Shown piece by piece: positions 929 through 64,000 of a stretch of DNA of 64,000 bases. The stretch lies in the IMG/VR virus record IMGVR_UViG_3300024344_003081; one strand, written 5' to 3'. The DNA is from a virus (lineage: Duplodnaviria > Caudoviricetes). The first letter of the stretch is position 1; each line of letters begins with the position of its first letter. The notes beneath the pieces are model-generated. The model made no database searches. It was not told where the DNA came from and saw only the letters and a list, made by a program, of their open reading frames with translations. The position numbers were made by a program, and so were the translations under genes.

Positions 929-938
929 AAATAGTCCA

Positions 939-967: not shown

Positions 968-998
968 ATATAATTGTATATCTTGTTTATATTATATG

Positions 999-1006: not shown

Positions 1007-1024
1007 TTTATTTAGTCATCAAAA

Positions 1025-3691
1025 GTGCTTATGAAAATCCTATATATTACTCCTCACCTATCTACAGGTGGTGCCCCACAGTATCTTCTTAAAAAAATAG
1101 AATTCTTACATAGTGACAATGATATTTATGTCATCGAATATAATGATTATGGTATCTATAGAGTTCAAAAAGATAAAATATTAAACATTTTAAATGACCG
1201 ATTAATAACTTTGTCTGAAGACAAAACTGATATACTGAAATATTTAGATGAAATAAAACCCCATATTGTTCACTTTGAGGAGATGCCTGAATTTTTTGTG
1301 GACGATGAAATAGCAGAACAAATTTATCAAAAAGAAAGAAGATATTTAATTTTTGAAACTTCTCATGATTCTTCATTCAATCCTGATGAAAAAAGATTTT
1401 TACCAGATAAATTTTTATTCTGTAGTGATAATCAATTAATAAAATTTAGATCATTAGATGTTCCTGCATGTGTTATAGAATATCCTGTTGATAAAAAAGT
1501 AGAAGAGAAACGAAGAGATGTTGCTTTAAGAGAATTAGGAGTTGATCCTGCCTTGAAGCACGTATTGAATGTTGGATTATGGACATCTAGAAAAAATCAA
1601 GCAGAAATTATTGAATATGCCAAACTTTTACCTGATGTACAATTTCATTTTGTAGGGAATCTTGCAGAAAATTTCAAAGAATATTGGGAACCCCTAACAA
1701 AAGATTTGCCTGATAATTGTATCGTTTGGGGAGAACGAGAAGATGTAGACAGATTTTATTCATGTATGGATTTATTTTTATTTGCTTCAAGGGGGAATGA
1801 ACACGATAAAGAAACGAATCCATTAGTATTAAAAGAAGCATTATCTTGGAAGATACCTGTTTTAGCACATAAACTTGATTCATATCTTGACAAATATAAT
1901 GATAAAGTTACTTGGCTTTCTGATAATGTTGAAATTAATACAATTAAAATATGCAGAATGTTGAATATAAGTGATCGAATTGTAAATTGTTCCATTGATG
2001 AAACTAAAGTAACTTTACACTTCACGAATTTTTATGAATGTTTTCATGAAAAATTATTATGTATCTATGAAATAGATACTGAATTGTTGGCGTATAGATC
2101 CCATATTATATGCAATTCGATGTGGGCTCAACCGCATTGTGGTAAAGATGTTACAAATGGATTTATAGTAAAAATATATGATGCTCCTAAAAATTATTTT
2201 TCGAATATAAATGATGAAAATTTAGTAGATGATCATCATCTTTTATTCGAAAAAACGTTTTCATGGAAAAATGAAGTAGATATTGCAGTTCTTGGTGAAA
2301 GAAAAAAATTTCATGGAATACCAGATGATCCCTCTTCTTGGTATACTCTTTATGAAACGTTAATATTAAAATATTATAATAAATTAAATTTAATAGAAGG
2401 CGATACTGTAATTGATATTGGAGGTCACTATGGATTTTTTACTATGTACGCCTTAAACAAAGGTGCTTCTCAGGTTCATACAATTGAACCCACAAAAACA
2501 ACTTTTGATGTTTTATGTAAAAATTTAAAAGATTATGATAATGTTAAAAAATATAATTTAGCAATTTCTTCTGATAATGAAAGTAGAGAACTTATTGCTA
2601 TTGGTTCTAGTTCATGTAATTCTTTTCATGAAAACTTTAATAATAGTCCAGACAATAAAGAAAATTTAGGAATAAGAAAAAAACAAGTTGTTAATTGTGT
2701 TACACTTGAACAATTTATGAAAAATAATAATATTGATAGAATAGATGCATTGAAATTAGATTGTGAAGGAGCAGAATGGGATATGTTACCAGCAATTAGT
2801 GATGATTTTTTTAAGTATAAGATAAGAAAACTTTCTATGGAAGCACATCCAGATGGTGTGGGTCAAGAAGGAATGAAAAATAGGGCAATTGAATTTATAG
2901 AACGATTAGAGGGTTTAAATTATCATGTCATTGCTGATTCTCAAATAACATCAAATGGAGAATTGGGTAATTTATGGGCATCAAGAAAACCAAAAATAAA
3001 AATAGTTCATATGCTTGTTGATCCTGATGGAGAAAGAGAAAAAGAATCGATAAGACATCTTACAAAATTATCTGAATATTCGAACTGGAAATATGAACAA
3101 ATAATAAATCCCTTATATAAAGATTTTCCACCAAAAGAAACATGTGCTAGACCAGAATCTGTCCAAATGAAGCCAGGAGAATATAAATTAACTCCTGCAC
3201 ATTATGGTAATTATTCTGCTCATAAAGATGCTATAAACAAACATTTAAATGATGAATTTGATGCGATTTTATTTTGTGAATGTGATGCTATTTTTATAAA
3301 ACCGGTTCATGTGGTTTATAGAGAAATTATGGATAGATTAGATGATATAAATCAATATGATTTGTATTATATGTCTTTTGGAAAAAGAATTCCTGATTGG
3401 GAACACGAAGACTATGAATATTTTGGTGTGACGAATAGAATGTCTGAAGCACATTGTTATTTACTGCCCACAGATAAAAAGAGAAAATTATATTTTAGAA
3501 AGAAATTAAAAGACACGAAGTGGGATACATATGATTTATGGTTGAATAACAATATATTTCCAGATAAGAAATGTGGCATAGTTAAATCTCCTATTTCAAT
3601 TCAATGTTCAGGTGAGTCATATCTAGACAAATCTTTTAAAGATGGAACTACTTTATTAACTGATGAAGAACTAACACATGAAACGTTTTAA
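1025..3691 (+). CDS. Multidomain GT4 glycosyltransferase / FkbM-family methyltransferase / GT-A (GT25-like) fusion
   Basis: N-terminal KILYITPHLSTGGAPQY and ETNPLVLKE (E-x7-E) GT-B motifs; VIDIGGHYG SAM motif and LKLDCEGAE FkbM motif; C-terminal LFCECDAIF acidic GT-A motif. Start may be ATG 1031. Confidence 0.85.
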   Translation: MLMKILYITPHLSTGGAPQYLLKKIEFLHSDNDIYVIEYNDYGIYRVQKDKILNILNDRLITLSEDKTDILKYLDEIKPHIVHFEEMPEFFVDDEIAEQIYQKERRYLIFETSHDSSFNPDEKRFLPDKFLFCSDNQLIKFRSLDVPACVIEYPVDKKVEEKRRDVALRELGVDPALKHVLNVGLWTSRKNQAEIIEYAKLLPDVQFHFVGNLAENFKEYWEPLTKDLPDNCIVWGEREDVDRFYSCMDLFLFASRGNEHDKETNPLVLKEALSWKIPVLAHKLDSYLDKYNDKVTWLSDNVEINTIKICRMLNISDRIVNCSIDETKVTLHFTNFYECFHEKLLCIYEIDTELLAYRSHIICNSMWAQPHCGKDVTNGFIVKIYDAPKNYFSNINDENLVDDHHLLFEKTFSWKNEVDIAVLGERKKFHGIPDDPSSWYTLYETLILKYYNKLNLIEGDTVIDIGGHYGFFTMYALNKGASQVHTIEPTKTTFDVLCKNLKDYDNVKKYNLAISSDNESRELIAIGSSSCNSFHENFNNSPDNKENLGIRKKQVVNCVTLEQFMKNNNIDRIDALKLDCEGAEWDMLPAISDDFFKYKIRKLSMEAHPDGVGQEGMKNRAIEFIERLEGLNYHVIADSQITSNGELGNLWASRKPKIKIVHMLVDPDGEREKESIRHLTKLSEYSNWKYEQIINPLYKDFPPKETCARPESVQMKPGEYKLTPAHYGNYSAHKDAINKHLNDEFDAILFCECDAIFIKPVHVVYREIMDRLDDINQYDLYYMSFGKRIPDWEHEDYEYFGVTNRMSEAHCYLLPTDKKRKLYFRKKLKDTKWDTYDLWLNNNIFPDKKCGIVKSPISIQCSGESYLDKSFKDGTTLLTDEELTHETF

Positions 3692-6600
3692 ATTATCTCT
3701 TGTAACTTCTTGTTACAATGCTGAGTCTTATTTGGAAGAGTTAGCGAATTCTGTTTTTTATCAAAATTATGATCATTGGGAATGGATTCTTGCTGATGAT
3801 TTTTCTGTTGATAATACTCGTACATTAATGGAAGAATTAAAAAGAAAAGATTCTAGAATAAGAATTGTAGAACCCAAACATAAAAAAGAAATTTGGTGGA
3901 ATCCACAACTTCATGCTGTTGGTGAAATAGTATGTCATTTAGATGCTGATGATGCAATTTTACCTGGAACATTTGATAAAATAATACATTATTTTAATTT
4001 ATTTCCAGAAGCAGTTTTACTTCATTTTAATGCAAACAAATATTTTAATACCCTACCCCAAAATACAACTAATCTCTTTGATAATTTTAAAGACAATGTA
4101 TACATGACAAGAGATAACAATTCTTTTTTAGAAGGATTTGAAAAGTTGTGGCCCCAACGAACAAATATTTTTGGATATTTAAGAATATTTAAAAATTTAC
4201 CAGGATTGCATTTTCCAGAACATAAAGATGATGATGCTTGTTTATCAAATGATGGACAATGGCTTTTACATTTAGAAAGATATGGAAAATGGTTAACTAT
4301 TCCTAGAACATCATATCTTGCAAGAGAACACGGTGAATGTGAAAACTTTAGAAACTGGAATCCTCGTGGAGAAGCACAATTAGTAATAAATGAAAAAAGA
4401 GATAGAAATAATTTTATTTTAGAATATCCAAGAAATATTAAATATTTTGATGATATCTATGATTTAGCAGAATCTACTTATTTGAGCAAATTGAATTATG
4501 AAACAGAAAGAAAAAATGTAAGTTTTTTAAATTTTAATTATGGTGAAGAACAACGAACAAAAGTAAAACAATTATTTTTTGATCATGATATAGTTTTTGA
4601 AAAGTATCTAGACAATATTTCTTATTATTTTGTTAAAATAAATTTAGAAGATACATCAGATACAATAAGAACAATTATATCTAAATTACCTGTAGCAAAT
4701 TTTGAATTAAGTTTTTTTTCAGATAATGTGCATTTACATCAAAATAATCGTACACAATCAGACAATATTGAAAATATAAAAGAGACTATTACATCAGATG
4801 GTCGAAGTGTTTTTTGGTATGCACAAGATAATCGAATACAATTTATTTCTGCTGTTCAACAAATAAAAGATGTTTCTGATATTGTTTTATCTACAGGAAA
4901 TGCATATGTTTTAGAAAGAAAAAAAGAAAGAGAAGAAGAAAATAATAATTTAAAAATAATGCAAGTACATATTGGTTGTGGGCTTGATATTCCACCCAAA
5001 GGATATGGGGGATTAGAAGAAGTCATGTATCAATATATGAGAGTAGCAAAGGGTAGAGGACATGAAGTAGAGTTAAAATGGTTAGATGATATAACGCAAA
5101 GTGATTTAGAAAAATATGATGTATTTCATAATCATACTGGTGGATTTTATGATTTATTGAGAGATAGATGTATACCTTATATTTTTACAATGCATGATGC
5201 TTTTGTGAAAATACATGGAAAAGATTCTCATTTTTATATGACTAATAATGAGACTATAAAAAATTCTTTATTCAGTTTAATTCCAACTGAAGATATGATA
5301 GATTTTTTTCTATATCCAGATAAGTTAAGAAGATTGCATCATGGTGTAGATACGAATTTTTATTTTCCTGTAAAAAACAAAAATGATGTACGATTGATTT
5401 GCGTGGGTGGAGGAGATGATAGAAAAGGATTTCATTTAGCAGTTCAGGCGGCAAAAACATTAGGACTTCCTATAACGATTGTTGGACCAGATTCAATACA
5501 TGCAGTATATAATAAAACTTTTTATGATATTGTAGAAGAATGTAAAAATCATATTGATATAACTCTTACAGGTAATGTAGAAAAATATGAATTAAGAAAT
5601 ATATTAAATGAACATCATATAATGATTCATCCAGCATCATTAGAAACAGGGCAACCCTGTCTTGCAGTTCTTGAAGCAATGGCGTGTGGATTACCTGTAG
5701 TTGGAACAATGCAAGATAAAATTTCTTTGAAAGGATTTGAATTATGTACTAGAGAAGTTGATGATATTGTAAATAAGGTTAAACTTGTTTTAAATGACTA
5801 TGATGAATATTCAAAGAAAGCAAGAGAATTTGCTAAAGAAAGAGATTGGGAAAATATTTTTGATGAATTGGAAAAATATTATTATGAAGCAAAAGAATTA
5901 AAATATACTAAGCCATTTGATATGAAAGATAGATTGTTATTTGCGTATCAAAATACAGATGCAGATGGTAAAAATATTTTCGATTTAAATATGCAAAAAA
6001 ATCCTTATTTGGCTGTTAAAGGATCTATTCCTGGAAATTATAAAATTAATTTTATTGATAGAGATACGGGTGGGGTTCATTATTCAAATGATGTTTCTGC
6101 GGGTGGCTGGGTTGCTTGTGGTATTGATTATTATGTTAATTGGAGAGTTGAAGCAATAAATGTTCAAACAGAAGAAATAGAATTTGAATATGAACAAGAT
6201 TTTACAAATAAAAATATTTTTGTTTGGTTTGATTCAGTAGCATTGGGAGATACTTTAGCTTGGGTACCAGTTGTTGAAGCATTTCGCAAGAAACATAAAT
6301 GTAAAATGTATTGTAGTACATTTTGGAACGATTTAGTATCTGAATCATACCCAGAAATAACCTTTATAACCCCTGAATCTGGATTTAATGATTTTGTATC
6401 TTCTTATCGAATAGGTTTTTTTGAAGAAAGTCTTCAATCTCCAGTAGATATGAAAAATGTTTCGTTACAGAAATTATGTGCAGGTATTCTTGGTTTTAAA
6501 GATTTTGAAGAAACAAAATGTGAAATAATAGTTAAAGAAAGAGAGGAAGATCCACAATTAATTCGAAAGCCTTATGTGTGCATTGGTATGCAATCAACTG

Positions 6601-7091
6601 CTCAAGCAAAATATTGGAATTATCCAGGAGGATGGGATGAGGTGGTTGACTTTTTATCCAAAAAGGGATATAATATAGTATGTATAGATAAACACCATTC
6701 TTTTGGACAAGGAGAATATTTTAATAAATCACCAAAAAATGTGATAGGAAGACATGAACGAACTTTAGATCAAACAATTGCTACTTTAAATGGTGCTGAA
6801 TTTTTTATTGGATTGGGTTCTGGTTTATCGTGGTTGGCGTGGTCTTTAAATAAATATGTAGTAATGATATCGGGATTTAGTAATCCTATATCTGAATTCT
6901 CTTCAAAATGTTTTAGAATCCATAATGATACAGTTTGTAATAGTTGTTATAATCGGCATAAATTTGATCCCGGTGATTGGTTGTGGTGTCCAGATCATAA
7001 AAATACTGACAGAATGTTTGAATGCACAAAAAACATTGAACCAGTAAAAGTTTGTGATGCTATTGAAGAAGTAATAAAACTAATAGACTAA
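3678..7091 (+). CDS. Multidomain GT2 / GT4 / Aah-TibC-type (autotransporter O-heptosyltransferase-like) glycosyltransferase
   Basis: GT2 start (LSLVTSCYNAE, ILADDFS, HLDADD); GT4 (GYGGLE, LEAMACGLPVV); C-terminal ALGDTLAW, STAQAKYWN, FIGLGSGLSWLAW, ISGFS and CNSC...WCP...FEC four-Cys cluster. Confidence 0.85.
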   Translation: MKRFKLSLVTSCYNAESYLEELANSVFYQNYDHWEWILADDFSVDNTRTLMEELKRKDSRIRIVEPKHKKEIWWNPQLHAVGEIVCHLDADDAILPGTFDKIIHYFNLFPEAVLLHFNANKYFNTLPQNTTNLFDNFKDNVYMTRDNNSFLEGFEKLWPQRTNIFGYLRIFKNLPGLHFPEHKDDDACLSNDGQWLLHLERYGKWLTIPRTSYLAREHGECENFRNWNPRGEAQLVINEKRDRNNFILEYPRNIKYFDDIYDLAESTYLSKLNYETERKNVSFLNFNYGEEQRTKVKQLFFDHDIVFEKYLDNISYYFVKINLEDTSDTIRTIISKLPVANFELSFFSDNVHLHQNNRTQSDNIENIKETITSDGRSVFWYAQDNRIQFISAVQQIKDVSDIVLSTGNAYVLERKKEREEENNNLKIMQVHIGCGLDIPPKGYGGLEEVMYQYMRVAKGRGHEVELKWLDDITQSDLEKYDVFHNHTGGFYDLLRDRCIPYIFTMHDAFVKIHGKDSHFYMTNNETIKNSLFSLIPTEDMIDFFLYPDKLRRLHHGVDTNFYFPVKNKNDVRLICVGGGDDRKGFHLAVQAAKTLGLPITIVGPDSIHAVYNKTFYDIVEECKNHIDITLTGNVEKYELRNILNEHHIMIHPASLETGQPCLAVLEAMACGLPVVGTMQDKISLKGFELCTREVDDIVNKVKLVLNDYDEYSKKAREFAKERDWENIFDELEKYYYEAKELKYTKPFDMKDRLLFAYQNTDADGKNIFDLNMQKNPYLAVKGSIPGNYKINFIDRDTGGVHYSNDVSAGGWVACGIDYYVNWRVEAINVQTEEIEFEYEQDFTNKNIFVWFDSVALGDTLAWVPVVEAFRKKHKCKMYCSTFWNDLVSESYPEITFITPESGFNDFVSSYRIGFFEESLQSPVDMKNVSLQKLCAGILGFKDFEETKCEIIVKEREEDPQLIRKPYVCIGMQSTAQAKYWNYPGGWDEVVDFLSKKGYNIVCIDKHHSFGQGEYFNKSPKNVIGRHERTLDQTIATLNGAEFFIGLGSGLSWLAWSLNKYVVMISGFSNPISEFSSKCFRIHNDTVCNSCYNRHKFDPGDWLWCPDHKNTDRMFECTKNIEPVKVCDAIEEVIKLID

Positions 7092-13270: not shown

Positions 13271-13271
13271 G

Positions 13272-13278
13272 CTAAATA
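13272..13278 (+). promoter_or_regulatory. Late promoter variant CTAAATA for the baseplate operon
   Basis: CTAAATA followed by GAGGAG RBS and ATG 13305. Confidence 0.55.
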
Positions 13279-13304
13279 TTATGTATATAACGTAGAGGAG
13301 AATA

Positions 13305-42587: not shown

Positions 42588-42814
42588 TAGTAAAAACAGA
42601 TAATCCAAGATATCATAGAGACACATTATCTAATGCAATTATTGCAACTGATCAAAAGGCTTTATTAAAACATAGACAAAAAGTATCACAAACCAGTCTA
42701 ATAAAAACTAATGAAAATGAAATAAATACCTTAAGAACAGATGTTAATAATATTAAAAATGATATTAATAAAATTTTAGAATTGTTAAGTAAGGACAAAG
42801 ATGGCAATATCTGA
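42584..42814 (+). CDS. Small conserved coiled-coil protein that follows VrlC-like genes
   Basis: 76 aa, TTG start, RD..SNAII..D and EI..L..DV..IK..L..LL pattern. Confidence 0.6.
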   Translation: MIVKTDNPRYHRDTLSNAIIATDQKALLKHRQKVSQTSLIKTNENEINTLRTDVNNIKNDINKILELLSKDKDGNI

Positions 42815-44537: not shown

Positions 44538-44544
44538 GATAAAA

Positions 44545-47750: not shown

Positions 47751-48155
47751 ATGATAAAAGATTTTGAAGATAAATTAAATGAAATTCTAGAAATGCCTTC
47801 TGGCTCTATTGTTAAAAAGCCCATTGAAAGAAAAGTTGTTGCATCTAATCCAGATGATTTAAATACTGATTATAAGTATGTTCGTGAAAATATATACAAT
47901 ATTATTGAAAGGGGACATGATGCTATTGAAGATTTATTACAAGATGCAAGAGATAGTGGTAATGCCAGAATGTTCGAAGTTGTCGGACAATTAATTAAAA
48001 CTGTAGGTGAACAAAATCAAAATTTAATGAACGTTCATAAACAAGTAAAAGATATCAAACAAGAAACCAGTACAGGACCTAATTCAGTAACAAATGCATT
48101 ATTTGTTGGTAGTACTGCAGAACTCCAAAAAATGTTAAAAGATAAAAAAGAATAG
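47751..48155 (+). CDS. gp16: Terminase small subunit gp16
   Basis: DY.Y.R.N.Y..I..G..A, R.FEV..QLIK, NALFVGSTAELQKML. Confidence 0.93.
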   Translation: MIKDFEDKLNEILEMPSGSIVKKPIERKVVASNPDDLNTDYKYVRENIYNIIERGHDAIEDLLQDARDSGNARMFEVVGQLIKTVGEQNQNLMNVHKQVKDIKQETSTGPNSVTNALFVGSTAELQKMLKDKKE

Positions 48156-49576: not shown

Positions 49577-51219
49577 TGGCTAAAGATACTTACGCAGGAA
49601 ATCCTCTTCTTAAAGGGGCATATCAACCAGTAGAGTATGATAAAGAGACTATAGAAGAATATATTAGATGCTCTAATGATCCTGTACATTTTGCAAAACA
49701 GTATATGAAAATCGTTCATGTTGATCATGGTTTAATGCCTTTTGATTTGTATGATTATCAAGAAGAGATGGTTGAAACATTTCATAATAATCGTTTTGTT
49801 ATTTGTAAGATGCCTCGACAAACTGGAAAATCAACAACAATTGTTGCTTATTTATTACATTTTGCTCTTTTTAATGAACAAGCTAATATTGCTATATTAG
49901 CAAATAAAGGGTCTACTTCAAGAGAGATCCTTCAGAGATTAAAAACTGCATATGAGCATTTACCAAAATGGTTGCAACAAGGCGTAGTTGTTTGGAATAG
50001 AGGTAATATTGAATTAGAAAATGGTAGTAAAGTTATATCTGCTTCAACTTCTTCTTCAGCGGTTCGTGGATCGTCTTTTAATATTATTTTTATGGATGAG
50101 TTTGCACATATTGATCCACCAAGTTTAGCAGAAGATTTTTTCACTTCTGTATATCCTACAATTTCTTCTGGTGTCACCACTAAAGTTTTTATTGTTTCAA
50201 CTCCAAAAGGATTGAACATGTTTTATAAGATGTGGGTCGATGCTGAAGAGAAAAGAAGCAATTATATTCCCATTGAAGTTCATTGGTCTCAAACACCTGG
50301 AAGAGATCAAAAATGGAAAGAAGAAACAATAAAAAATACGAGTGAATTGCAATTTGCTCAAGAATATGAATGTGATTTTATTGGTTCACAAAATACATTA
50401 ATTTCTCCTTCTAAATTGAGACAAATGCCTTATAAACCACCTATTTCAAAGAGAGATAGTTTAGATGTATATGTTGAACCAGATCCTAAACATTCATATG
50501 TGTGTATAGTTGATGTTGCAAGAGGAAGAGGCCAAGATTATTCTGCATTTTCAATTATAGATGTTTCTCAATTTCCATATGAACAAGTTGCAAAATATAG
50601 AGATGAAAACATTTCTCCTATATTATTACCAAATGTTGTTGATAATGTGAGTAGATATTATAATTCTGCATATATTTTAGTTGAAATAAATGATATTGGT
50701 GGTCAAGTAGCAGATATTTTACATCACGATTTAGAATATCCTAATATTTTTCAAACAAGTGTTATGGGAAGATCGGGTCAAACTTTAGGGGGCGGATTCG
50801 GAAAAGGTTCGCAATTAGGAATTAGAACTACAAAAGAAGTTAAAAGAAAAGGGTGTTCTAGTTGTAAAGATTTGATAGAAGGGGATAAATTACTTGTTTG
50901 GGATTTAGACACTATTACTGAAATGACGACATATATTGCTAAAGGATCAAGTTATGAAGCAGATGAAGGATATCATGATGACTTGATGACAACTTTAATT
51001 TTGTTTGGTTGGTTAGTAAATCAAAAATATTTTACAGAAATTACAGATTTAGATTTACGTGAAAAAATGTTTAAAGAACAACTAGAAGAAGCAGAAGCAC
51101 AATTGATACCTTTTGGTTATATAAATGATGGAAGAGATTCTTATGAACCAGAAACAGTAAATATGGGTGGTGAAAAATGGGTAGTAGATAAAAAATATTC
51201 TACGGATTATCTACATTAA
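49576..51219 (+). CDS. gp17: Terminase large subunit gp17
   Basis: PRQTGKSTT Walker A, IFMDEFAH Walker B, DVARGRGQDYS, VEIND, HDDL. Confidence 0.97.
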   Translation: MAKDTYAGNPLLKGAYQPVEYDKETIEEYIRCSNDPVHFAKQYMKIVHVDHGLMPFDLYDYQEEMVETFHNNRFVICKMPRQTGKSTTIVAYLLHFALFNEQANIAILANKGSTSREILQRLKTAYEHLPKWLQQGVVVWNRGNIELENGSKVISASTSSSAVRGSSFNIIFMDEFAHIDPPSLAEDFFTSVYPTISSGVTTKVFIVSTPKGLNMFYKMWVDAEEKRSNYIPIEVHWSQTPGRDQKWKEETIKNTSELQFAQEYECDFIGSQNTLISPSKLRQMPYKPPISKRDSLDVYVEPDPKHSYVCIVDVARGRGQDYSAFSIIDVSQFPYEQVAKYRDENISPILLPNVVDNVSRYYNSAYILVEINDIGGQVADILHHDLEYPNIFQTSVMGRSGQTLGGGFGKGSQLGIRTTKEVKRKGCSSCKDLIEGDKLLVWDLDTITEMTTYIAKGSSYEADEGYHDDLMTTLILFGWLVNQKYFTEITDLDLREKMFKEQLEEAEAQLIPFGYINDGRDSYEPETVNMGGEKWVVDKKYSTDYLH

Positions 51220-51622
51220 TACGATGAATATTTTTAGGTTCTTTTATTTGATCAATTAATTTGTTTATATCGTGTTTTAAATCTGGTCTTAAATTTTTTA
51301 ATTTTTGTAAATATCTTATAGATTCATTGAATATCATTTCAGGATTAATTCTCAATTCATAAAATTTATTTCTCGTTTCACTTTTTGTAGTTAAATACAA
51401 ATGTTCTGGTTTTACACAATATGTATTGTTGCATGATTGATGAACTATTTTATTTCGTTCAATAGATCCCTTATAAGCAATATATGCAAATCTATGAGCA
51501 GGAATTGATTGTCCATCATATGAAAACATACCATATCCCTGTTTTGTTTTGCTTGCAGTCCAGAACCAACAATCATTTGTTTTTAAAATTTTATCTTCAA
51601 ATCTTTCAATAGCCTTCTTCAT
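51200..51622 (-). CDS. HNH (His-Cys box, HNH_3-like) endonuclease homologue, probably degenerate
   Basis: CW.WT, GYG, AHRFAY, SCNN..CV.P.HL; expected catalytic His and metal-ligand Asn appear replaced. Confidence 0.75.
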   Translation of the reverse strand: MKKAIERFEDKILKTNDCWFWTASKTKQGYGMFSYDGQSIPAHRFAYIAYKGSIERNKIVHQSCNNTYCVKPEHLYLTTKSETRNKFYELRINPEMIFNESIRYLQKLKNLRPDLKHDINKLIDQIKEPKNIHRINVDNP

Positions 51623-56459: not shown

Positions 56460-59400
56460 ATGAAAGACGATCAAAAAGAACCACAAGACTTAGATTTAAG
56501 TAAAGTTTTAGCTACTGCTCTTGCTTATACTAAAAAAACACTTAAAAAGACTAAAGAAGAACTTGTTGTAGGCATAAAAGAAATTTTAGATCCTGTAACT
56601 GGTGAAAAAGTCAGAGTTCTTGAAATCAAAGGTACAGAAGGTTCCAAGGGCGAAAAAGGTGAAAAGGGAGAGCAAGGAGAGATTGGTCCCGTTGGTGAAC
56701 GAGGGGAAGACGGGAGAATTGGGCCTCAAGGTGTTCAAGGACCTCAGGGAGAGCAGGGAGAAACTGGACCCGAGGGACCCGAGGGAGAAAAGGGCGATCC
56801 TGGTGATGATGCTGAAGTAACTAGACTTGAAATTGAAATAGAAGGCATCAAAAAAGTTGTTAAAGAAGTTAGTTCAAAAGCAACCCAAACTGCACAAAAA
56901 GTAGCAGGAGGAAGCGGTTGGGGTGAAGGCGGCGGTGGAGGAGGAGCTTCTGGAATACACGGAACACATGGAACTTCTGGATCTGCGGGTTCATCTGGCG
57001 AAACTCATGGTACTTCTGGATCTTCTGGAGTTGATGGAACGTTTTTAGGCACTCATGGTACTTCTGGCTCTGCAGGAAGTTCTGGAGGAACAGGAAGTCA
57101 TGGTACTTCTGGCTCTGCAGGATCATCTGGATCTGCTGGTTCGTCTGGCTCATCTGGGTCTACAGGAACTTCTGGATCATCTGGTTTAACATATGCTTCA
57201 TCTGGATCTTCTGGAACTGCAGGAACATCTGGTCGTGATGGCGGTTCTTATATTCATATTCAATCTTCAGCCCAACCTGTTTGGTTAATAAATCATAATT
57301 TAAATACTAGACCAATAAACATATTAGTAGTAGATAGTGATTACAATGTAATTTATCCTGAATCTGTTCAATTTATTGATTCCAATACTGTAAAAATAAT
57401 CTGGCCTTCCTCTCAAGCAGGATTTGCTTCAATCACTTTTGGTGAAGCCTCTTCTGGTACTTCAGGAACATCTGGATTAACATATGCTTCTTCTGGTTCT
57501 GCTGGCTCTGCAGGAAGTGCTGGATCTACTGGTTCTGCAGGAAGTTCGGGAAGTGCTGGAAGTGCAGGAAGTTCGGGATCGTCTGGTCGTGATGCTTCTT
57601 CTGGATCATCTGGTTCTTCTGGAACATCTGGAACATCTGGAGTAGATGGTGAACAAGGAGATACGGGAGAAGGAGGAACTTCTGGTTCGTCAGGAACTAC
57701 TGGAACGCATGGAAGTTCTGGTTCTTCGGGAACAGATGGGACATCAGGAACATCTGGATCAGATGGAACTGAAGGAGATACAGGACCTCAAGGAACTGGA
57801 GGAACATCTGGCTCTGCAGGAAGTTCGGGAAGTGCTGGATCGTCTGGTTCATCTGGAGAAGATGGAACTTCGGGATCGTCTGGTTCATCTGGAGAAGATG
57901 GAACTTCTGGATCTTCTGGATCGTCTGGTTCTGCAGGAAGTTCTGGAACTTCTGGAACTGCTGGTACAAGTGGAACTTCTGGAACTGCTGGATCATCTGG
58001 TATAGATGGTGGTTTTGGAGGAGCTTCATTTTCATATCGTTACAATACTACACAAGGTACGGATGATCCAGGAACAGGGAAAATAGCATTTACTCTAACT
58101 TCTGGTACTTTTACAACTCCTGATCAAGCTAATAGATTAAGAATAAGTGATACTGATCAAGACGGAACAATAATTGATAGTTTTTTACAAACAATTAATG
58201 ATGTTGCTTTTAGTGATCCTAAAGGACATTTACGAATTTATGATAAAGATGATCCAGATGAATTTATGTTATATGGTATCAATGAATTTGATACTGTAAA
58301 TCCTTCATGGTATTATGTAAAAGTTACATATTTAGATTCCTCATTAACTGATTTTCAAAACGCAACTGAACTTGTTGCAACATTTGCAAGAACTGGTGAT
58401 TCTGGAACTTCTGGATCTGCTGGTTCATCTGGATCTGCGGGTAGTGCTGGATCCGCTGGTTCTGCTGGAAGTGCTGGCTCTGCAGGGAGTGCGGGTTCTG
58501 CAGGAACTGCTGGTTCTGCTGGTTCATCTGGATCCGCTGGATCTTCTGGATTGACATATGCTTCTTCTGGATCTGCTGGATCGTCTGGATTGACATTTGC
58601 TTCATCTGGATCATCTGGAGGAACAGGAAGTCATGGAACTTCTGGAACTACTGGAACTTCTGGCTCTGCTGGAAGTACTGGTTCTGCAGGTTCTGCAGGT
58701 AGTGCTGGATCTTCTGGACAAGATGGTGGTTCTTATATTCATAATCAAGAGTCAGCGGCATCCGTTTGGTTAATAAATCATCATCTAGGTGTTAGACCTT
58801 TAAATACTACAGTTGTAAATACTGATTATGATGTAATTTATCCAGAATCGATTAGATTTACAGACTCACGTACTGTTAAATTAGTTTTTACATCTGCAGT
58901 AGCGGGTTGGTGTGCATTAACTTTTGGAGAAGGCTCTTCTGGAACTTCTGGTTCTTCTGGAACTTCTGGATCGTCTGGTTCTGCAGGATCTGCTGGTTCT
59001 GCTGGTTCTGCAGGATCGTCTGGATCGTCTGGTTCTGCAGGAAGTGCAGGTAGTGCTGGATCATCTGGATGGACTTATGCTTCTTCTGGATCGTCTGGTT
59101 CTGCAGGAAGTGCTGGCTCTGCTGGAAGTGCTGGATCTGCTGGTTCTGCTGGAAGTGCAGGAAGTTCGGGAAGTGCTGGATCGTCTGGCTCTGCAGGAAG
59201 TTCGGGAAGTGCTGGATCTGCTGGTTCCGCTGGTTCTGCAGGGAGTGCTGGTTCATCTGGATCTGCAGGAAGCTCTGGATCTTCTGGTACTTCTGGATCT
59301 TCTGGTTCATCTGGCTCTGCAGGAAGTGCTGGCTCTGCTGGAAGTGCTGGCTCTGCAGGATCATCTGGATCTGCTGGTTCATCTGGCTCTGCAGGATCAT

Positions 59401-61499
59401 CTGGATCTGCTGGTTCATCTGGCTCTGCAGGAAGTGCTGGAAGTGCTGGCTCTACAGGAAGTTCGGGAAGTGCTGGATCATCTGGTCGTGATGGTGTTTT
59501 TGGAGGAGCGGCTTTTGAATATGATTTTTCAAATACAGCATTTGTAGGAGCTACAAGTGATCCTGGTGCGGGTAAACTTAACGTAGGATTCGATAATGGA
59601 TCTATTACTTTAGAGGATGATACTGGAAGTTTTATTTTAGAAACAGAGTCGGATCTTTTATTAGAGGGAGGTTCTACACCTACTGATTTTTCTACAGTTA
59701 ACAGAATTTCTATAAGCGAAACTGATGTAAATGGAACATCAACTGAAAGTTTTTTAAGTCAAGTTCAAACAGCAACATCTGCAATTAAAGGTCATGTAAG
59801 AATTCATCGAAAAACATATTCTGACCAATATGCAATGTTTACCATTCATTATGTTACTAATAATACAGATTTTCAAGAAATAGAAGTTACAAAAGTTGGT
59901 GGTGAAAATGCATTTTTTGCTAATGATGAAGACATAGTTGTTACATTTGCAAGAACTGGTGATGCTGGAACATCTGGAACATCTGGATCATCTGGATTAA
60001 CTTATGCTTCTTCTGGAAGTGCTGGCTCTGCAGGAAGTGCAGGAAGTTCTGGAACTGCAGGATCGTCTGGTCGTGATGGGGGTTCTTTTACTCATGAACA
60101 ATCTTCAGCGGCATCTGTTTGGTTAATAAATCATACTTTAACAAAAAGAGTTATAAATGTTCAAGTTTGTGATGATGATTATAATGTAATTTATCCAGAA
60201 TCTATTCAATTTACGGATTCAAATAATATAAAAATAGTATTTCCTACTGCAATAGCAGGATGGGCTACAGTAACGTTTGGAGAATCAACTTCTGGTACTT
60301 CTGGAACTGCAGGATCATCTGGAATAACTTATGCTTCTTCTGGATCGTCTGGTTCTGCAGGAAGTGCTGGCTCTGCTGGAAGTGCTGGATCTGCTGGTTC
60401 TGCTGGAAGTGCAGGAAGTTCGGGAAGTGCTGGCTCTGCAGGAAGTGCTGGTTCATCTGGCTCTGCAGGAAGTGCTGGAAGTGCTGGAAGTGCAGGAAGT
60501 GCTGGCTCTTCTGGTTCTGCAGGAAGTGCTGGATCCGCAGGAACTTCTGGAACTGCAGGAACTTCTGGACTAGATGGTAATTTTGGAGGAGCATCTTTTG
60601 AATATGATTTTGAAAATACAACATTTACAGGTGCATCAAGCGATCCAGGTTCTGGTAAACTTGAAGTAGGTATTGATACTGGATCTGCACCAACTGATTT
60701 CTCTACAGTTAACAGAATTTCTATAAGCGAATTAGATGTAAATGGTACATCAACTGAGAGTTTTCTAGATCAAGTTGATGGTGCAACATCTGCAATTAAA
60801 GGTCATGTAAGAATTCATAAAAGATTTAATAGTGATCAATATGTAATATTTACAATTTCAGATGTTACTAATAATACAGATTTTCAAGAAATAGAAGTTT
60901 CAAAGATCGGAGGACAAACTGCATTATTTTCCGATGATGAAGATATAGTTGTTACATTTGCAAGAACTGGTGATGCTGGAACATCTGGAACTGCTGGAAC
61001 TTCAGGAACTGCAGGAACTTCTGCTTCTGCTGGTTCTGCAGGAAGTGCTGGATCATCTGGCTCTGCAGGAACTTCTGGAACTACTGGTTCTTCAGGAAGT
61101 GCAGGAAGTTCGGGAAGTGCTGGATCGTCTGGCTCTGCAGGAACTGCAGGATCCTCTGGATTTTTAAATCTAAATAATTCTGCAGAAGATCGTTTAATTT
61201 CTATTAATGCTGATACTGAATCTGGTGATGGAGAAACAAATTTAACATTTGATGGAAATGAATTAAATGTAACTGGTAAAACTTTTTTGGTGGGTACAAG
61301 TGGAACAACTGGTTATATTCAAATGTCTCAAAGAGATGATGTTTCAGGAAATAAACCTACTTTGACTGCAGGTCAATCTGCAGTTTTTTCAAGTTCTTCG
61401 GGAGCAGGAGGAACAGGAATATATTTTAAACAAGGAACTGATGATCCCGATGAATTGGTTTCACGCAAAAAAGCAATAACTTATGGATTAATATTCTAA
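56460..61499 (+). CDS. Giant collagen-like / Gly-Ser-Ala triplet-repeat fibre protein with alternating globular modules A and B
   Basis: About 20 canonical G-X-Y collagen triplets, a short coiled coil, then hundreds of residues of G-S-A/G-S-S/G-T-S separating three A modules (H.Q.S...W.I.H.L..RP) and three B modules (F.Y...DPG.G...KGH.RI...TFARTGD); ends DELVSRKKAITYGLIF. Confidence 0.85.
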   Translation: MKDDQKEPQDLDLSKVLATALAYTKKTLKKTKEELVVGIKEILDPVTGEKVRVLEIKGTEGSKGEKGEKGEQGEIGPVGERGEDGRIGPQGVQGPQGEQGETGPEGPEGEKGDPGDDAEVTRLEIEIEGIKKVVKEVSSKATQTAQKVAGGSGWGEGGGGGGASGIHGTHGTSGSAGSSGETHGTSGSSGVDGTFLGTHGTSGSAGSSGGTGSHGTSGSAGSSGSAGSSGSSGSTGTSGSSGLTYASSGSSGTAGTSGRDGGSYIHIQSSAQPVWLINHNLNTRPINILVVDSDYNVIYPESVQFIDSNTVKIIWPSSQAGFASITFGEASSGTSGTSGLTYASSGSAGSAGSAGSTGSAGSSGSAGSAGSSGSSGRDASSGSSGSSGTSGTSGVDGEQGDTGEGGTSGSSGTTGTHGSSGSSGTDGTSGTSGSDGTEGDTGPQGTGGTSGSAGSSGSAGSSGSSGEDGTSGSSGSSGEDGTSGSSGSSGSAGSSGTSGTAGTSGTSGTAGSSGIDGGFGGASFSYRYNTTQGTDDPGTGKIAFTLTSGTFTTPDQANRLRISDTDQDGTIIDSFLQTINDVAFSDPKGHLRIYDKDDPDEFMLYGINEFDTVNPSWYYVKVTYLDSSLTDFQNATELVATFARTGDSGTSGSAGSSGSAGSAGSAGSAGSAGSAGSAGSAGTAGSAGSSGSAGSSGLTYASSGSAGSSGLTFASSGSSGGTGSHGTSGTTGTSGSAGSTGSAGSAGSAGSSGQDGGSYIHNQESAASVWLINHHLGVRPLNTTVVNTDYDVIYPESIRFTDSRTVKLVFTSAVAGWCALTFGEGSSGTSGSSGTSGSSGSAGSAGSAGSAGSSGSSGSAGSAGSAGSSGWTYASSGSSGSAGSAGSAGSAGSAGSAGSAGSSGSAGSSGSAGSSGSAGSAGSAGSAGSAGSSGSAGSSGSSGTSGSSGSSGSAGSAGSAGSAGSAGSSGSAGSSGSAGSSGSAGSSGSAGSAGSAGSTGSSGSAGSSGRDGVFGGAAFEYDFSNTAFVGATSDPGAGKLNVGFDNGSITLEDDTGSFILETESDLLLEGGSTPTDFSTVNRISISETDVNGTSTESFLSQVQTATSAIKGHVRIHRKTYSDQYAMFTIHYVTNNTDFQEIEVTKVGGENAFFANDEDIVVTFARTGDAGTSGTSGSSGLTYASSGSAGSAGSAGSSGTAGSSGRDGGSFTHEQSSAASVWLINHTLTKRVINVQVCDDDYNVIYPESIQFTDSNNIKIVFPTAIAGWATVTFGESTSGTSGTAGSSGITYASSGSSGSAGSAGSAGSAGSAGSAGSAGSSGSAGSAGSAGSSGSAGSAGSAGSAGSAGSSGSAGSAGSAGTSGTAGTSGLDGNFGGASFEYDFENTTFTGASSDPGSGKLEVGIDTGSAPTDFSTVNRISISELDVNGTSTESFLDQVDGATSAIKGHVRIHKRFNSDQYVIFTISDVTNNTDFQEIEVSKIGGQTALFSDDEDIVVTFARTGDAGTSGTAGTSGTAGTSASAGSAGSAGSSGSAGTSGTTGSSGSAGSSGSAGSSGSAGTAGSSGFLNLNNSAEDRLISINADTESGDGETNLTFDGNELNVTGKTFLVGTSGTTGYIQMSQRDDVSGNKPTLTAGQSAVFSSSSGAGGTGIYFKQGTDDPDELVSRKKAITYGLIF

Positions 61500-61500
61500 T

Positions 61501-61821
61501 ATGTCTATCGAAACAAATTTAATAGCAAATACAAATAGTGCAACAGCCACTACAGTTTATACTTCATCAGGAGAGTCTGCAGTTACAACAATATTTTTTT
61601 GTAATACAGATTCTTCTGCTATTGATGTAACATGTTGGATTGTTCCTAATGGTGACACATTGGGAGATGAACACATGATAATGAAAGAATTAACAATAAA
61701 TGCAACTGATACTTTTGCTTTTGGAAGTGAAAGAATTTTAATGGGAGCAAGCGATACTATTCAAGCAATCGCTGATACAGTAGATAAAGTTTCAGTAGTA
61801 ATTAGCTATACGAGTATTTAA
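61501..61821 (+). CDS. Small beta-rich virion protein of the type that follows fibre genes in T4-like marine phages
   Basis: 106 aa, TVYT...SAVTTIFFCN, I.A.DT....ERI.M...D.I.A pattern; 1-nt gap after upstream stop. Confidence 0.55.
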   Translation: MSIETNLIANTNSATATTVYTSSGESAVTTIFFCNTDSSAIDVTCWIVPNGDTLGDEHMIMKELTINATDTFAFGSERILMGASDTIQAIADTVDKVSVVISYTSI

Positions 61822-61824: not shown

Positions 61825-64000
61825 ATGGCACTATTTCTTAAAGGCGAATACGCAGATTATAGTTTAAAAGAGAAAACAACTTCTGGTTCCGCTGGCTCTG
61901 CTGGATCTGCGGGGAGTGCTGGATCTGCAGGTTCTGCTGGTTCTGCAGGATCGTCTGGATTGACATATGCTTCATCTGGAAGCTCTGGCTCTGCGGGTTC
62001 TGCAGGGAGTGCTGGATCTTCTGGACAAGATGGTAGTTCTTTTGTTCATACTCAATCTTCAGCTTCACTTGTCTGGTTGATAACTCATGGTTTAGGAACT
62101 AGACCAGTAAATATAGAAGTTGTTGATGATAATTATAATGTTATTATACCAGAATCTATTCAATTTATTGATGGAAATAATGTAAAAATAGTATTTACTT
62201 CTTCACAAGCAGGATATGCCGCCATAACTTATGGACAGGGTTCTTCTGGAACTTCTGGTTCTGCAGGAACTTCTGGTTCTTCGGGAATGGGTGGAACTGC
62301 TGGATCATCTGGATCTACTGGTTCTACAGGAAGTGCTGGCTCTGCAGGATCATCTGGCTCTGCGGGAAGTGCAGGAAGTTCTGGGAGTGCTGGTTCTTCT
62401 GGTTCTGCAGGAACTTCTGGAACTACTGGAACTTCTGGAACTGCAGGAACATCTGGACAAGATGGAAATTTTGGTGGTCAATCTTTTGAATATGATTTTG
62501 AAAATACAACATTTACAGGCGCCGCAAGTGATCCAGGTTCTGGTAAACTTGTAGTAGGAATTGATACTGGATCTGCACCTACAGATTTTTCTACAGTTGA
62601 TAGAATTTCTATGAGTGAAGCTGATGTAAATGGTACATCAACTGAAAGTTTTCTAGATCAAGTTGATGGTGCAACATCCGCAATTAAAGGACATGTAAGA
62701 ATATCGAAAAAATTTGATACAAGTACGTATGTAATGTTTACTATCTCGGATGTTACTAATGATTCGGGTTTTCAAGAAATAGAAGTTTCGAAAATAGGAG
62801 GACAAACTGCATTATTTGATGATGATGAAGACATAATTGTTACATTTGCAAGAACTGGTGATGCTGGAACTTCTGGAACATCTGGTTCTTCAGGAAGTGC
62901 TGGTTCTGCAGGATCATCTGGCTCTGCGGGAAGTGCTGGCTCATCTGGATCCGCTGGCTCTGCGGGAAGTGCGGGTAGTGCTGGAAGTGCTGGTTCTGCT
63001 GGAAGTGCTGGCTCTGCAGGAAGTGCTGGTTCTTCGGGGGCAGGAGGAACACACGGAACTGCAGGTAGTGCTGGATCTGCTGGTTCATCTGGATCTGCAG
63101 GAAGTGCTGGCTCTGCGGGTTCTGCAGGAAGTGCTGGATCTTCTGGACAAGATGGCGGATCTTATATTCATACTCAATCTTCAGCTTCACTTGTCTGGTT
63201 TATACCTTATAATTTAAATACTAGGCCTGTAAATATAGAAGTTGTTGATGATAATTATAATGTAATTTATCCAGAATCTATTCAATATATTGATTCAAAT
63301 AATGTAAAAATAGTATTTCCTACTACTCAAGCAGGATATGCGGCGGTAACTTTTGGTGAAGGATCGTCTGGATCATCTGGTTCGTCTGGATTGACTTATG
63401 CTTCATCTGGATCATCTGGTACTTCTGGATCATCTGGGAGTGCTGGTTCTTCAGGAAGTGCTGGATCTGCTGGTTCCGCTGGCTCATCTGGATCCGCTGG
63501 CTCTGCAGGAAGTGCTGGTTCATCTGGCTCTGCAGGAAGTGCTGGAAGTGCTGGAAGTGCAGGAAGTGCTGGCTCTGCAGGAAGTGCTGGCTCTGCTGGT
63601 TCTGCGGGCTCTTCTGGATACACTTATGCTTCATCTGGTTCATCTGGCTCTGCGGGAAGTGCTGGTTCTGCAGGATCATCTGGTTCGTCAGGAACTACTG
63701 GAACTTCTGGAACATCTGGTTCTTCAGGAAGTGCTGGTTCTGCAGGATCATCTGGCTCTGCGGGAAGTGCTGGTTCTGCTGGATCCGCTGGCTCTGCAGG
63801 AAGTGCTGGAAGTGCTGGTTCATCTGGTTCTGCTGGTTCTTCAGGAAGTGCTGGAAGTGCAGGAAGTGCTGGCTCTACAGGAAGTGCTGGATCCGCTGGC
63901 TCTGCAGGGAGTGCTGGATCATCCGGTCGTGATGGTGGATCTTACATTCATACACAATCTACACCTGCAATTGTTTGGTTAATACCTTATAATTTAGGAA
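61825..64000 (+). CDS. Second Gly-Ser-Ala repeat fibre protein, partial (runs off window end; absent from ORF track)
   Basis: ATG 61825 [27 protein letters not shown]..., open to 64000; modules A, B, A and the start of another A. Confidence 0.85.

Follow-up and report, generated by a model that had tools for sequence, protein, structure and literature searches.

P0001, the 1679-residue product of a gene in the window (the whole 64,000-nucleotide stretch of viral DNA analysed here), is probably a very long, three-stranded collagen-like structural fibre, clamped by nodes, of the source phage, which belongs to an uncultured lineage of T4-like marine myoviruses. Collagen-like repeats have been known in phage fibres since 1998 (Smith et al. 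1998, cited in PMC1079782), and P0001 adds tracts that are almost proline-free and poor in charge.

Triplet tracts and their conservation

The P0001 reading frame starts with an ATG at 56460 and its stop ends at 61499, exactly where the initial annotation had placed a Gly-Ser-Ala collagen. The Pfam Collagen model (PF01391) matches 11 stretches of the protein at 285.3 bits (E 8.8e-87; cut-off 27.2), and the best stretch covers residues 58-116. An artefact or a wrong reading frame was rejected, given that 1679 codons are open and that the globular parts fold confidently and are conserved in 10 related contigs. Short ORFs in other frames within the gene are by-products of the repeats. The gene and its parts are as follows.

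56460..61499, + strand: collagen-like fibre gene 1 (P0001; ORF list, translation, Pfam Collagen, PHROG, orthologues)
56460..56630, + strand: N-terminal 57-aa non-collagen region (present in all P0001 orthologues)
56631..56810, + strand: canonical collagen tract, residues 58-117 (20 triplets with 6 Pro and 22 charged residues; Pfam Collagen)
56811..56921, + strand: heptad (coiled-coil-like) segment, residues 118-154 (a/d pattern)
57249..57455, + strand: domain A copy 1, a small beta-sandwich (alignment of 40 copies; AF2 pLDDT 93.8)
57603..58025, + strand: longest tract 1, residues 382-522 (47 triplets, including embedded charged triplets)
58026..58394, + strand: domain B copy 1, a divergent subtype (alignment; ~35% identity to other copies)
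58734..58931, + strand: domain A copy 2, used with its flanks for the trimer model (alignment, AF2 model)
59088..59510, + strand: longest tract 2, residues 877-1017 (47 triplets, nearly pure GSA/GSS)
59511..59957, + strand: domain B copy 2, 149 aa including a 24-aa insertion (alignment of domain B)
60087..60293, + strand: domain A copy 3 (alignment of domain A copies)
60594..60968, + strand: domain B copy 3 (AF2 pLDDT 93.0)
61167..61499, + strand: C-terminal 110-aa non-collagen domain (constant in P0001 orthologues)

When a tract is defined as at least 4 Gly-X-Y triplets, P0001 contains 17 tracts of 4-47 triplets, the longest of which would measure approximately 40 nm. Together they hold 272 triplets (816 residues, 49% of the protein). 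Ser (161) and Thr (53) dominate the X position, Ala (104) and Ser (101) dominate the Y position, and the most frequent triplets are GSA (89), GSS (64) and GTS (32). Each chain thereby carries approximately 260 Ser and 70 Thr residues in its tracts (~330 in total). Imino acids or charge pairs at the X and Y positions are the usual, although not obligatory, source of collagen stability. Outside residues 58-117, these stabilizers are almost absent from P0001, as the initial annotation had noticed: the 504 X and Y positions of the 252 remaining triplets include one Pro and 28 Asp, Glu, Lys or Arg residues.

Gly had also been reported at every third residue throughout the tracts. This regularity is found in the 272 in-phase triplets, but it is not seamless, because seven conserved G-x-T-[YF]-A-S-S-G interruptions each move the phase by one residue and Gly is replaced at three triplet positions (ASS, ASA). 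The charged triplets described as embedded without a phase break do lie in phase, and both quoted strings fall within the unbroken 47-triplet tract at residues 382-522. For the other 47-triplet tract (residues 877-1017), language-model features are nearest to Collagen clusters with a score of 0.89, which serves as a lead only.

The whole P0001 sequence gave zero tblastn matches in 50,697 phage records, probably owing to the low-complexity filter. A piece containing domains A and B, searched against the same records, retrieved only weak matches, those of domain A in jumbo phages of Erwinia and Yersinia and a single one of domain B in a Caulobacter phage. No close cultured relative of P0001 was found in this collection. 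The nearest related genome used for comparison is a phage represented by a 161-kb contig (G001). The collagen gene pair of the window recurs in this contig and in nine IMG/VR contigs. The P0001 orthologues have constant ends, range from 1238 to 2174 aa in length and vary in tract lengths and domain number. Such variation suggests that the collagen tracts are recombination joints for module shuffling.

The triplet periodicity, as judged from the aligned genes, reflects neither chance nor recent DNA slippage, because Gly is invariant between orthologues, the Ser codons are mixed and the DNA repeats are short. Between the window and G001 tracts, Gly was changed at 0/64 positions, X at 4/64 and Y at 12/64. 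Both Ser codon families are used (208 TCN and 53 AGY), and the repeats are degenerate, with the longest perfect period-9 DNA repeat extending over 26 nt. At the sequence level, selection evidently keeps the periodicity of P0001.

Globular domains, the trimer model and alternative folds

The P0001 tracts are broken by two kinds of small beta-domain, with three copies of domain A (66 aa) and three copies of domain B (123-149 aa). By its domain layout, the protein therefore resembles beads on a string, with six globular domains between tracts and no continuous helix. The initial annotation had envisaged approximately 800 triplet residues forming a rod of approximately 200 nm. The residue count agrees well with the 816 observed, but the residues are distributed over 17 tracts of at most 40 nm each, and the predicted architecture is beaded rather than a single rod. 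Two motifs at the junctions, G-(Q/R)-D-G-G and G-E-G-S-S-G-T-S-G, are conserved. The two ends are close to those of the G001 orthologue, with 91% identity in the N-terminal 57 aa and 92% identity in the C-terminal 110 aa, and the N-terminal region is presumed to be the virion-attachment end.

Domain B and both terminal regions returned no Pfam or PHROG match. A profile search with domain B matched 2,981 cluster representatives, and domain B thus stands for a large nameless family of approximately 3,000 cluster representatives without a Pfam or PHROG model; the relatives that carry it have a median Pro content of 5%. Both domains recur in other collagen-containing fibre-like proteins. Neither domain had a Foldseek match at E <= 0.001 or a clear solved structural neighbour in VIA-align (best Z scores of 6.5 and 5.6), and domain A resembles the tripod chains of TP901-1/Tuc2009 only weakly (Z 4.5-4.8), on a par with many others. 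Domains A and B presumably act as trimer nodes or binding modules.

A three-copy model of residues 717-872, which contain domain A copy 2 and its flanks, scored 0.82, and the best of three controls scored 0.00. The mark for this score was reached by 20/30 proteins solved as pairs and by 1/23 proteins solved as single chains. Prior exposure of the predictor to solved collagens may account for part of this pass. The three runs share at least 92% of their contacts, and the pLDDT of the partner is no lower than 66. In the C-terminal flank, 10 of the 11 distinct confident contact residues occupy Gly positions (109, 112, 118 ... 139), which is what a triple helix would produce. Together with the conserved periodicity, this prediction for domain A and its flanks makes triple-helical tracts in P0001 likely. 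The idea that a canonical collagen and a coiled coil at the N-terminus could nucleate a trimer gains from the model, which favours a trimer. A canonical tract and a coiled-coil-like heptad pattern are indeed present near the N-terminus, although the coil follows the canonical tract instead of preceding it: the heptads comprise approximately 4-5 repeats at residues 118-150, with V, I, V, A, V and L, I, V, T at the a and d positions.

How would such a fibre assemble? Three chains would associate, probably from the canonical tract at residues 58-117 and the heptad coil at residues 118-150. The repeated A and B domains would then keep the chains in register along their length, and domain A is modelled to pack as a trimer. 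Between these nodes, the proline-free G-S-A, G-S-S and G-T-S tracts would wind into short triple helices of the collagen type, each comprising 4 to 47 triplets (up to ~40 nm), and the seven G-x-T-[YF]-A-S-S-G interruptions would act as kinks or hinges. The outcome would be a flexible beaded fibre of ~230-250 nm if fully extended. The intrinsic stability of G-S-A helices is expected to be low because they contain neither imino acids nor ion pairs. However, these helices would need less intrinsic stability than free collagen because every tract is clamped by nodes at its two ends. The many trimeric nodes, together with the cold marine habitat, could suffice for helix stability without modification.

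Could the G-S-A tracts instead be flexible disordered spacers that function as entropic tethers between the folded A and B domains, with chain association confined to the N-terminal collagen and coil and the globular nodes, or lacking altogether? Protein engineers use GSAGSA-type sequences as flexible linkers, and the host-guest propensities of Ser and Ala are only mid-range. A composition of Gly, Ser, Ala and Thr with one Pro and 28 charged residues in 252 triplets would suit such spacers, but nothing would force a linker to retain Gly at each third position over this length. Likewise, the trimer model has a modest overall pLDDT (66-69), but its confident contacts fall on Gly positions. The absence of Gly changes (0/64, compared with 16/128 for X and Y together) despite degenerate DNA and the use of both Ser codon families, the canonical charged triplets embedded in phase and the conserved junction motifs further argue against spacers devoid of a triple helix, and we consider this explanation improbable.

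The initial annotation also raised a fold resembling springtail antifreeze proteins, in which the tracts would fold back as polyglycine-II/PPII bundles, giving compact domains and not an extended fibre. Such bundles, among them the springtail antifreeze protein sfAFP and the glycine-rich tip of T-even adhesins (phage S16 gp38), also have a Gly-X-X periodicity built on small residues, and the phage inhabits cold water. Nevertheless, X is Gly in just 10/272 triplets, which leaves no Gly-Gly-X face, and tracts of up to 141 residues lack a regular turn motif. Moreover, the lengths of orthologous tracts vary freely (for example, 47, 49 and 58 triplets), which is tolerated by a linear rod but would not be by a packed bundle, and the model puts the flank Gly residues at the three-chain axis. 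We regard the bundle as very improbable and retain the trimeric collagen as the preferred fold.

Genomic locus and position on the virion

The P0001 gene is located directly 3' of the portal gene in a T4-like structural module, in which sheath, tube and portal precede it. Two further reading frames follow.

61501..61821, + strand: 106-aa ORF separating the two collagen genes (position and size retained in the G001 phage)
61825..63999, + strand: collagen-like fibre gene 2 (P0002), a paralogue cut by the window end (triplets, A and B domains)

The 106-aa ORF has a weak phrog_1276 match, and the IMG/VR relatives exhibit a gap of matching size between their two collagen genes. The 725 visible residues of P0002 contain 139 triplets in addition to A and B domains. 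P0001 and P0002 most likely serve host contact.

The attachment point of P0001 on the virion could be the tail, the neck or the head. The stretch between the portal gene and the head genes is an unusual place for T4-like tail fibres. P0001 may alternatively be a head or neck decoration, such as a whisker or capsid fibre, whose stalks hold the A and B domains off the capsid for host scanning or shielding. In favour of this assignment, the collagen genes directly follow the portal gene in the slot leading to the head genes, the major capsid gene of G001 lies ~19 kb downstream, and the N-terminal 57 aa do not match known baseplate-attachment domains. However, the PHROG matches of P0001 are to tail-fibre and collagen-like minor-tail families, mostly via the collagen and domain A parts, and the C-terminus of the 1662-aa G001 orthologue of P0002 matches phrog_19602, tail fiber (3.4e-14). 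Furthermore, the usual fibre island, from the giant DUF4815 baseplate protein to the neck genes, is nearly empty here, and the collagen genes may therefore simply be relocated tail fibres. A head or neck decoration thus seems rather unlikely. It concerns location only and is compatible with P0001 being a trimeric collagen.

Among characterized phage collagens, EPclA and EPclB from E. coli O157:H7 prophages are likewise of the tail-fibre type and contain (Gly-X-Y)n domains that have a trimeric coiled coil and non-collagen trimerization domains at their flanks (PMC3368898). They were shown to be trimeric and triple-helical without hydroxyproline (PMC3368898). Pro occupies approximately half of their X positions and charges are frequent (PMC3368898), whereas P0001, which is 4-5 times their length and interrupted by six globular domains, has few charges and a single Pro in the 252 triplets outside its canonical tract. 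The P-SSM2 orf028 protein and the 'triple collagen repeat' proteins of cyano- and pelagimyophages are candidate tail fibres that also come from marine T4-like phages, with ~49% Gly-X-Y and common Ser and Thr (PMC1079782, PMC7029224). Unlike these proteins, P0001 is encoded after the portal gene, outside the usual host-recognition cluster, and its G-S-A/G-S-S tracts have essentially no Pro; apart from the weak domain A and B matches, no homology to cultured phages was found for its globular parts. The Tal protein of S. thermophilus cos/pac siphophages shares the same layout of a long variable collagen, one or two binding modules as insertions, a short linker of collagen and, C-terminally, a domain of ~100 aa, but it belongs to another phage type, has a gp27-like N-terminus and carries BppA-like CBMs as its insertions (PMC7533335).

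Glycosyltransferases and a possible sugar coat

The window also encodes two overlapping glycosyltransferase fusions.

1025..3691, + strand: GT1 and FkbM-type methyltransferase fusion (Pfam), overlapping the next ORF by 14 nt
3678..7091, + strand: three-domain glycosyltransferase consisting of GT2, GT1/GT4 and TibC/Aah-type O-heptosyltransferase domains (Pfam, TIGR04414, PDB TibC)

The C-terminal domain of the second enzyme (residues 786-1132, nt 6033-7073) is, by homology, a TibC/Aah-type protein-serine O-heptosyltransferase. The ORF matches the TIGR04414 equivalog at 315.8 bits (cut-off 200) and the TibC structures 4RAP/4RB4 in the PDB with an E value of 3.2e-65. In TibC, Asp110 is catalytic and Cys339, Cys342, Cys358 and Cys370 form the iron finger (PMC4358343). 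In the alignment to 4RB4, which is a D110A mutant, the phage enzyme has Asp at position 110 and equivalents of all four Cys residues. The G001 phage keeps the three-domain enzyme at 88% identity as the sole such gene in its assembly.

Does the phage glycosylate its own fibre? The initial annotation had linked the weak intrinsic stability of the tracts to the glycosyltransferases, and this link is strengthened by the TibC/Aah-type domain and by its relatives beside proline-free collagen genes in three lineages. In megaphage LR756501, IMG/VR contig L053 and Microcystis phage Mel-JY01, relatives of the enzyme lie at most 2 kb from proline-free Ser/Thr collagen ORFs, and in LR756501 a homologue of the GT1-FkbM fusion adjoins that relative. 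However, ~50 kb separates the enzyme genes from the fibre genes in the window phage, the record of megaphage LR756504 contains a distant relative of the enzyme but no Collagen match, the Ser-rich collagen fibre P0008 has no Pfam-recognized glycosyltransferase within 10 kb, and a cytidylyltransferase-type ADP-heptose synthesis gene was not found on the G001 phage contig. Three fragmentary IMG/VR contigs (24-34% complete) with enzymes of 52-56% identity contain no Collagen match, and no collagen ORF lies within 10 kb of the 35 closer glycosyltransferase loci, as in the window phage. From this gene content, the chances that the ~260 Ser and 70 Thr residues per chain are O-glycosylated by the phage's own TibC/Aah-type fusion appear roughly even or a little less.

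Tract glycosylation would stiffen or stabilize the helix, or shield the fibre. A broader proposal is that of a sugar-stabilized collagen, in which the TibC/Aah-type fusion and the GT1-methyltransferase load many Ser and Thr residues, glycans instead of Pro or charge pairs stabilize and stiffen the helix, and large aquatic phages use this as a general strategy. We advance it tentatively and consider it somewhat doubtful. A (Gly-Ser-Ala)n sequence of 250 triplets lies at or past the lower stability limit predicted by collagen rules. If the tracts are triple-helical, frequent trimeric 'staples' may replace imino acids, or, if the phage protein-serine glycosyltransferase acts on the fibre, sugars may stabilize it, as proposed for Riftia cuticle collagen. 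Either outcome would bear on collagen design and on our understanding of how abundant marine phages assemble and diversify the fibres that contact their hosts.

Precedents exist for glycosylated repeats of this kind. BclA from the Bacillus anthracis exosporium and the Thr-galactosylated Riftia cuticle collagen are hydroxyproline-poor proteins with O-glycans on repeat Ser/Thr residues, and the Riftia glycans raise stability. Thr glycosylation is also mentioned as a collagen stabilizer in the EPcl study (PMC3368898). The X/Y pattern of P0001, with Ser in X and Ala or Ser in Y, differs from GPT or G-x-T(Gal), and glycans on P0001 are a prediction. Autotransporter heptosylation in the TibC/TibA and Aah/AIDA-I systems (BAHT family; PMC4358343) offers a second parallel, given that a single enzyme would in each case modify numerous serines on a repetitive surface protein. 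The presumed substrate of the phage enzyme is a collagen-like fibre rather than a beta-helical autotransporter, and the phage enzyme is fused to GT2 and GT1 domains.

Composition and domain structure of the fibre protein

Col1 is a phage collagen-like fibre protein of a kind already known, and its gene keeps the boundaries of the initial annotation.

56460-61499, plus strand: col1, collagen-like fibre gene 1, encoding 1679 aa
Residues 58-117 of col1: canonical collagen tract of 20 triplets (6 Pro, 22 charged residues)
58026-58394: domain B copy
59511-59957: domain B copy
60594-60968: domain B copy

Col1 contains 17 tracts of at least four Gly-X-Y triplets each, amounting to 272 triplets or 816 residues (49% of the protein), in agreement with the roughly 800 triplet residues estimated from the initial annotation. 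Ser (161) and Thr (53) form the majority at the X position, as do Ala (104) and Ser (101) at the Y position, and the commonest triplets are GSA (89), GSS (64) and GTS (32). Outside the canonical tract, the 504 X and Y positions of 252 triplets hold a single Pro and 28 charged residues. The two in-register strings quoted earlier both lie in a single unbroken 47-triplet tract (residues 382-522). The tracts themselves are discontinuous: seven conserved G-x-T-[YF]-A-S-S-G interruptions each shift the phase by one residue, and six globular domains (three copies each of the small beta-domains A and B) split them. Because these domains separate the tracts, no rod-like stretch exceeds about 40 nm, against the 200 nm once envisaged; the helices summed at full extension reach about 233 nm.

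Between orthologous tracts of the window phage and the related phage genome G001, Gly is changed at 0 of 64 positions, X at 4 and Y at 12 of 64, and the periodicity is under selection. Since Ser codons come from both families (208 TCN, 53 AGY) and the longest perfect period-9 DNA repeat is only 26 nt, recent DNA slippage did not produce the pattern. Inside the collagen genes (57646-58035, 58888-59547, 60260-60624 and 62231-63982, both strands), the triplet repeats also give rise to numerous ORFs of 80-200 aa in the remaining frames or on the opposite strand, which are not genes.

Domain A (66 aa; 40 distinct copies aligned at 71% mean column identity) is modelled by AF2 as a four-strand beta-sandwich (pLDDT 93.8), and domain B (123-149 aa; 21 copies aligned) as seven strands and one helix (pLDDT 93.0). 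Foldseek returned nothing at E <= 0.001 for either domain among solved structures, and neither has a clear solved neighbour (best VIA Z 6.5 and 5.6); domain B is also without a Pfam or PHROG model. Domain A is found in other fibre-like proteins, one of which has two A domains together with GTS-type collagen and a Peptidase_S74 chaperone domain. The domain B profile matches 2,981 cluster representatives at E <= 0.001 and defines a large family so far without a name. Collagen-like tracts usually flank domain B through the conserved junctions G-x-D-G-x-F-G-G and T-F-A-R-T-G-D. Among the best 150 of these 2,981 matches, 99 have 10 or more Gly-X-Y triplets (median Pro share in X/Y, 5%), so the pairing of proline-poor collagen with domain B is common in metagenomes. 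The lineage-specific trait is instead the G-S-A/G-S-S composition.

Phage collagen was reported by Smith et al. 1998, as cited in PMC1079782, and collagen-like fibre proteins include EPclA/B (PMC3368898), P-SSM2 orf028 (PMC1079782) and the collagen-repeat proteins of pelagimyophages (PMC7029224). In EPcl collagens, Pro occupies roughly half of the X positions (PMC3368898), whereas Pro and charge are nearly absent from col1. Unlike the known fibres, col1 is extremely long, is built as beads on a string from two un-named domains and lies behind the portal gene, in a genome that also carries an apparently bona fide protein-serine glycosyltransferase. The Tal proteins of S. thermophilus phages share its layout: a collagen region with inserted CBMs leads through a collagen linker to a C-terminal domain of some 100 aa (PMC7533335).

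Trimer assembly and alternative readings

Residues 717-872 (14 triplets, domain A, 16 triplets) were modelled as three chains, using an alignment of 39 domain A copies with their short flanks. The model scores 0.82, against 0.00 for the best of three controls, above a mark that is reached by 20 of 30 proteins whose solved structure is a pair and by 1 of 23 whose solved structure is a single chain; the runs show at least 92% contact agreement and a partner's pLDDT of at least 66. Confident contacts lie within domain A and the C-terminal flank, where Gly positions make up 10 of the 11 distinct contact residues (109, 112, 118, 121 ... 139). In the model, this pattern reads as the signature of Gly packing along a three-chain axis. 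This pass supports, but does not prove, a trimer of domain A with its flanks, as resemblance to solved complexes can also give a pass.

We propose that trimerisation would begin at the canonical tract and coil, with the A and B domains acting as repeated registration nodes. Because the short Gly-Ser-Ala helices between nodes would be clamped at both ends, low intrinsic stability could suffice, especially in cold sea water, and the aromatic YASS kinks would provide flexibility. The binding parts are likely to be the globular domains or the C-terminal domain.

If the tracts were disordered linkers, the strict Gly conservation, the conserved junction motifs and the Gly-position contacts of the model would go unexplained, and we consider this reading decidedly improbable. 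Still less credible is a polyglycine-II/PPII bundle, the alternative fold raised in the initial annotation, which we practically discard: the Gly-Gly-X face and regular turns are absent, and tract lengths vary freely. That the protein is a head or neck fibre instead of a tail fibre is unlikely, and concerns only its location.

A predicted protein-serine glycosyltransferase domain

1025-3691: fusion of GT1 and FkbM-methyltransferase domains, overlapping the next ORF by 14 nt
3678-7091: GT2 and GT1 domains, then a TibC/Aah-type domain (residues 786-1132, nt 6033-7073)

The TibC/Aah-type domain matches TIGR04414, the Aah/TibC "autotransporter O-heptosyltransferase" equivalog, at 315.8 bits (cut-off 200), and the TibC structures 4RAP and 4RB4 at E 3e-65. 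Its alignment to TibC keeps Asp at the catalytic Asp110 position and all four iron-finger cysteines (339, 342, 358, 370), whose roles in TibC have been described (PMC4358343). The glycosyltransferases of pelagimyophages have been read as LPS modifiers (PMC7029224); in contrast, the TibC/Aah family glycosylates protein serines, not lipopolysaccharide. The G001 phage enzyme is 88% identical and is the sole TIGR04414 match in that 1.9-Mb assembly.

The proposed link between glycosyltransferases and fibre gains from this domain and from distant relatives beside collagen ORFs. In megaphage LR756501, the enzyme-gene pair adjoins a 695-aa ORF whose G-S/T-S tracts lack proline and which has a B-like junction motif. 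In IMG/VR contig L053, the end of a gene for a G-T-S/G-S-S tract protein lies 1.25 kb upstream of an enzyme relative. In the cultured Microcystis phage Mel-JY01 (PP395634, L057), an open frame at 2-3049 (plus strand) of at least 1016 aa, which runs off the record start, sits 1.7 kb upstream of the enzyme fusion; it contains 202 proline-poor Gly-Ser/Thr-Ser triplets (Pro 3%; Ser, Ala and Thr together 80%) and ends in an A-like domain. Against the link, megaphage LR756504 has a distant enzyme relative and no Collagen match in its record, and P0008, another Ser-rich collagen fibre, has no recognised glycosyltransferase within 10 kb. In the window phage, about 50 kb separate enzyme and fibre genes; no ADP-heptose-type cytidylyltransferase was found on the G001 phage contig, and our literature search returned no paper linking heptosyltransferases to phage collagen-like fibres. 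Glycosylation of the fibre by the phage's own enzyme is thus a tentative possibility, to which we incline slightly less than to its opposite.

In the deposited Mel-JY01 annotation, the region is instead given a hypothetical CDS of 519 aa on the minus strand (739-2298) and a short plus-strand CDS (2519-3052), which looks like a mis-call caused by the repeats.

Relatives and genomic setting

G001, the nearest genome compared, includes a 161-kb phage contig in which col1 (1398 aa), a 106-aa ORF and col2 (1662 aa) come after the portal gene in this order, and the pair recurs in nine IMG/VR contigs. All col1 proteins share a 57-aa N-terminus, the 20 canonical triplets with a 37-aa heptad segment, and a C-terminal domain of about 110 aa; these constant parts are 88-92% identical between window and G001. 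The middle varies in the number and order of domains A and B and in tract lengths, giving totals of 1238-2174 aa. Constant ends with a variable middle are expected of a linear rod that can gain or lose single triplets and has recombining repeats. Two genes behind the second fibre gene of the G001 phage, a 268-aa ORF (L010 18169-18975) weakly matches the Asp/Asn beta-hydroxylase type (PF05118, E 3.3e-5, 24.2 bits, cut-off 22.6) and could be another modifying enzyme or one of these phages' many 2OG oxygenases.

The window (G+C about 30%) is the structural module of a T4-like marine myovirus.

In the window: gp59 and gp32
In the window: baseplate hub and wedge proteins
35703-42587: giant DUF4815 protein
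In the window: neck proteins (one gene at 44545-45555) and small and large terminase subunits
In the window: sheath, tube and gp20 portal

Among deposited phages, pelagiphage HTVC008M, Synechococcus myoviruses and the SAG-associated "Marine virus AG-345" records come closest, but their nucleotide identity is only 68-72% and covers parts of the sheath-to-portal stretch. In HTVC008M, four small ORFs separate the portal gene from the prohead protease downstream, whereas in the window the next gene after the portal is the 1679-aa collagen gene, and beyond it lie a 106-aa ORF and a second collagen gene running off the window. In cyano- and pelagimyophages, a fibre-rich host-recognition cluster separates the giant baseplate protein from the neck genes (PMC7029224). 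In the window, this slot (42588-44544) holds a single 578-aa ORF with no family match, which suggests that the fibre genes were relocated to a place behind the portal gene. The cluster in that slot spans 34-45 kb in cyano- and pelagimyophages.

The genes for the small and large terminase subunits are separated by a 473-aa ORF (48155-49576) that matches no Pfam or PHROG family. Two other genes are on the minus strand: one for an HNH endonuclease (51200-51622), located between terminase and sheath genes, and one for a protein with a TnsA-like endonuclease N-terminal domain (PF08722, E 3.8e-25), located among the baseplate genes (12839-13327).
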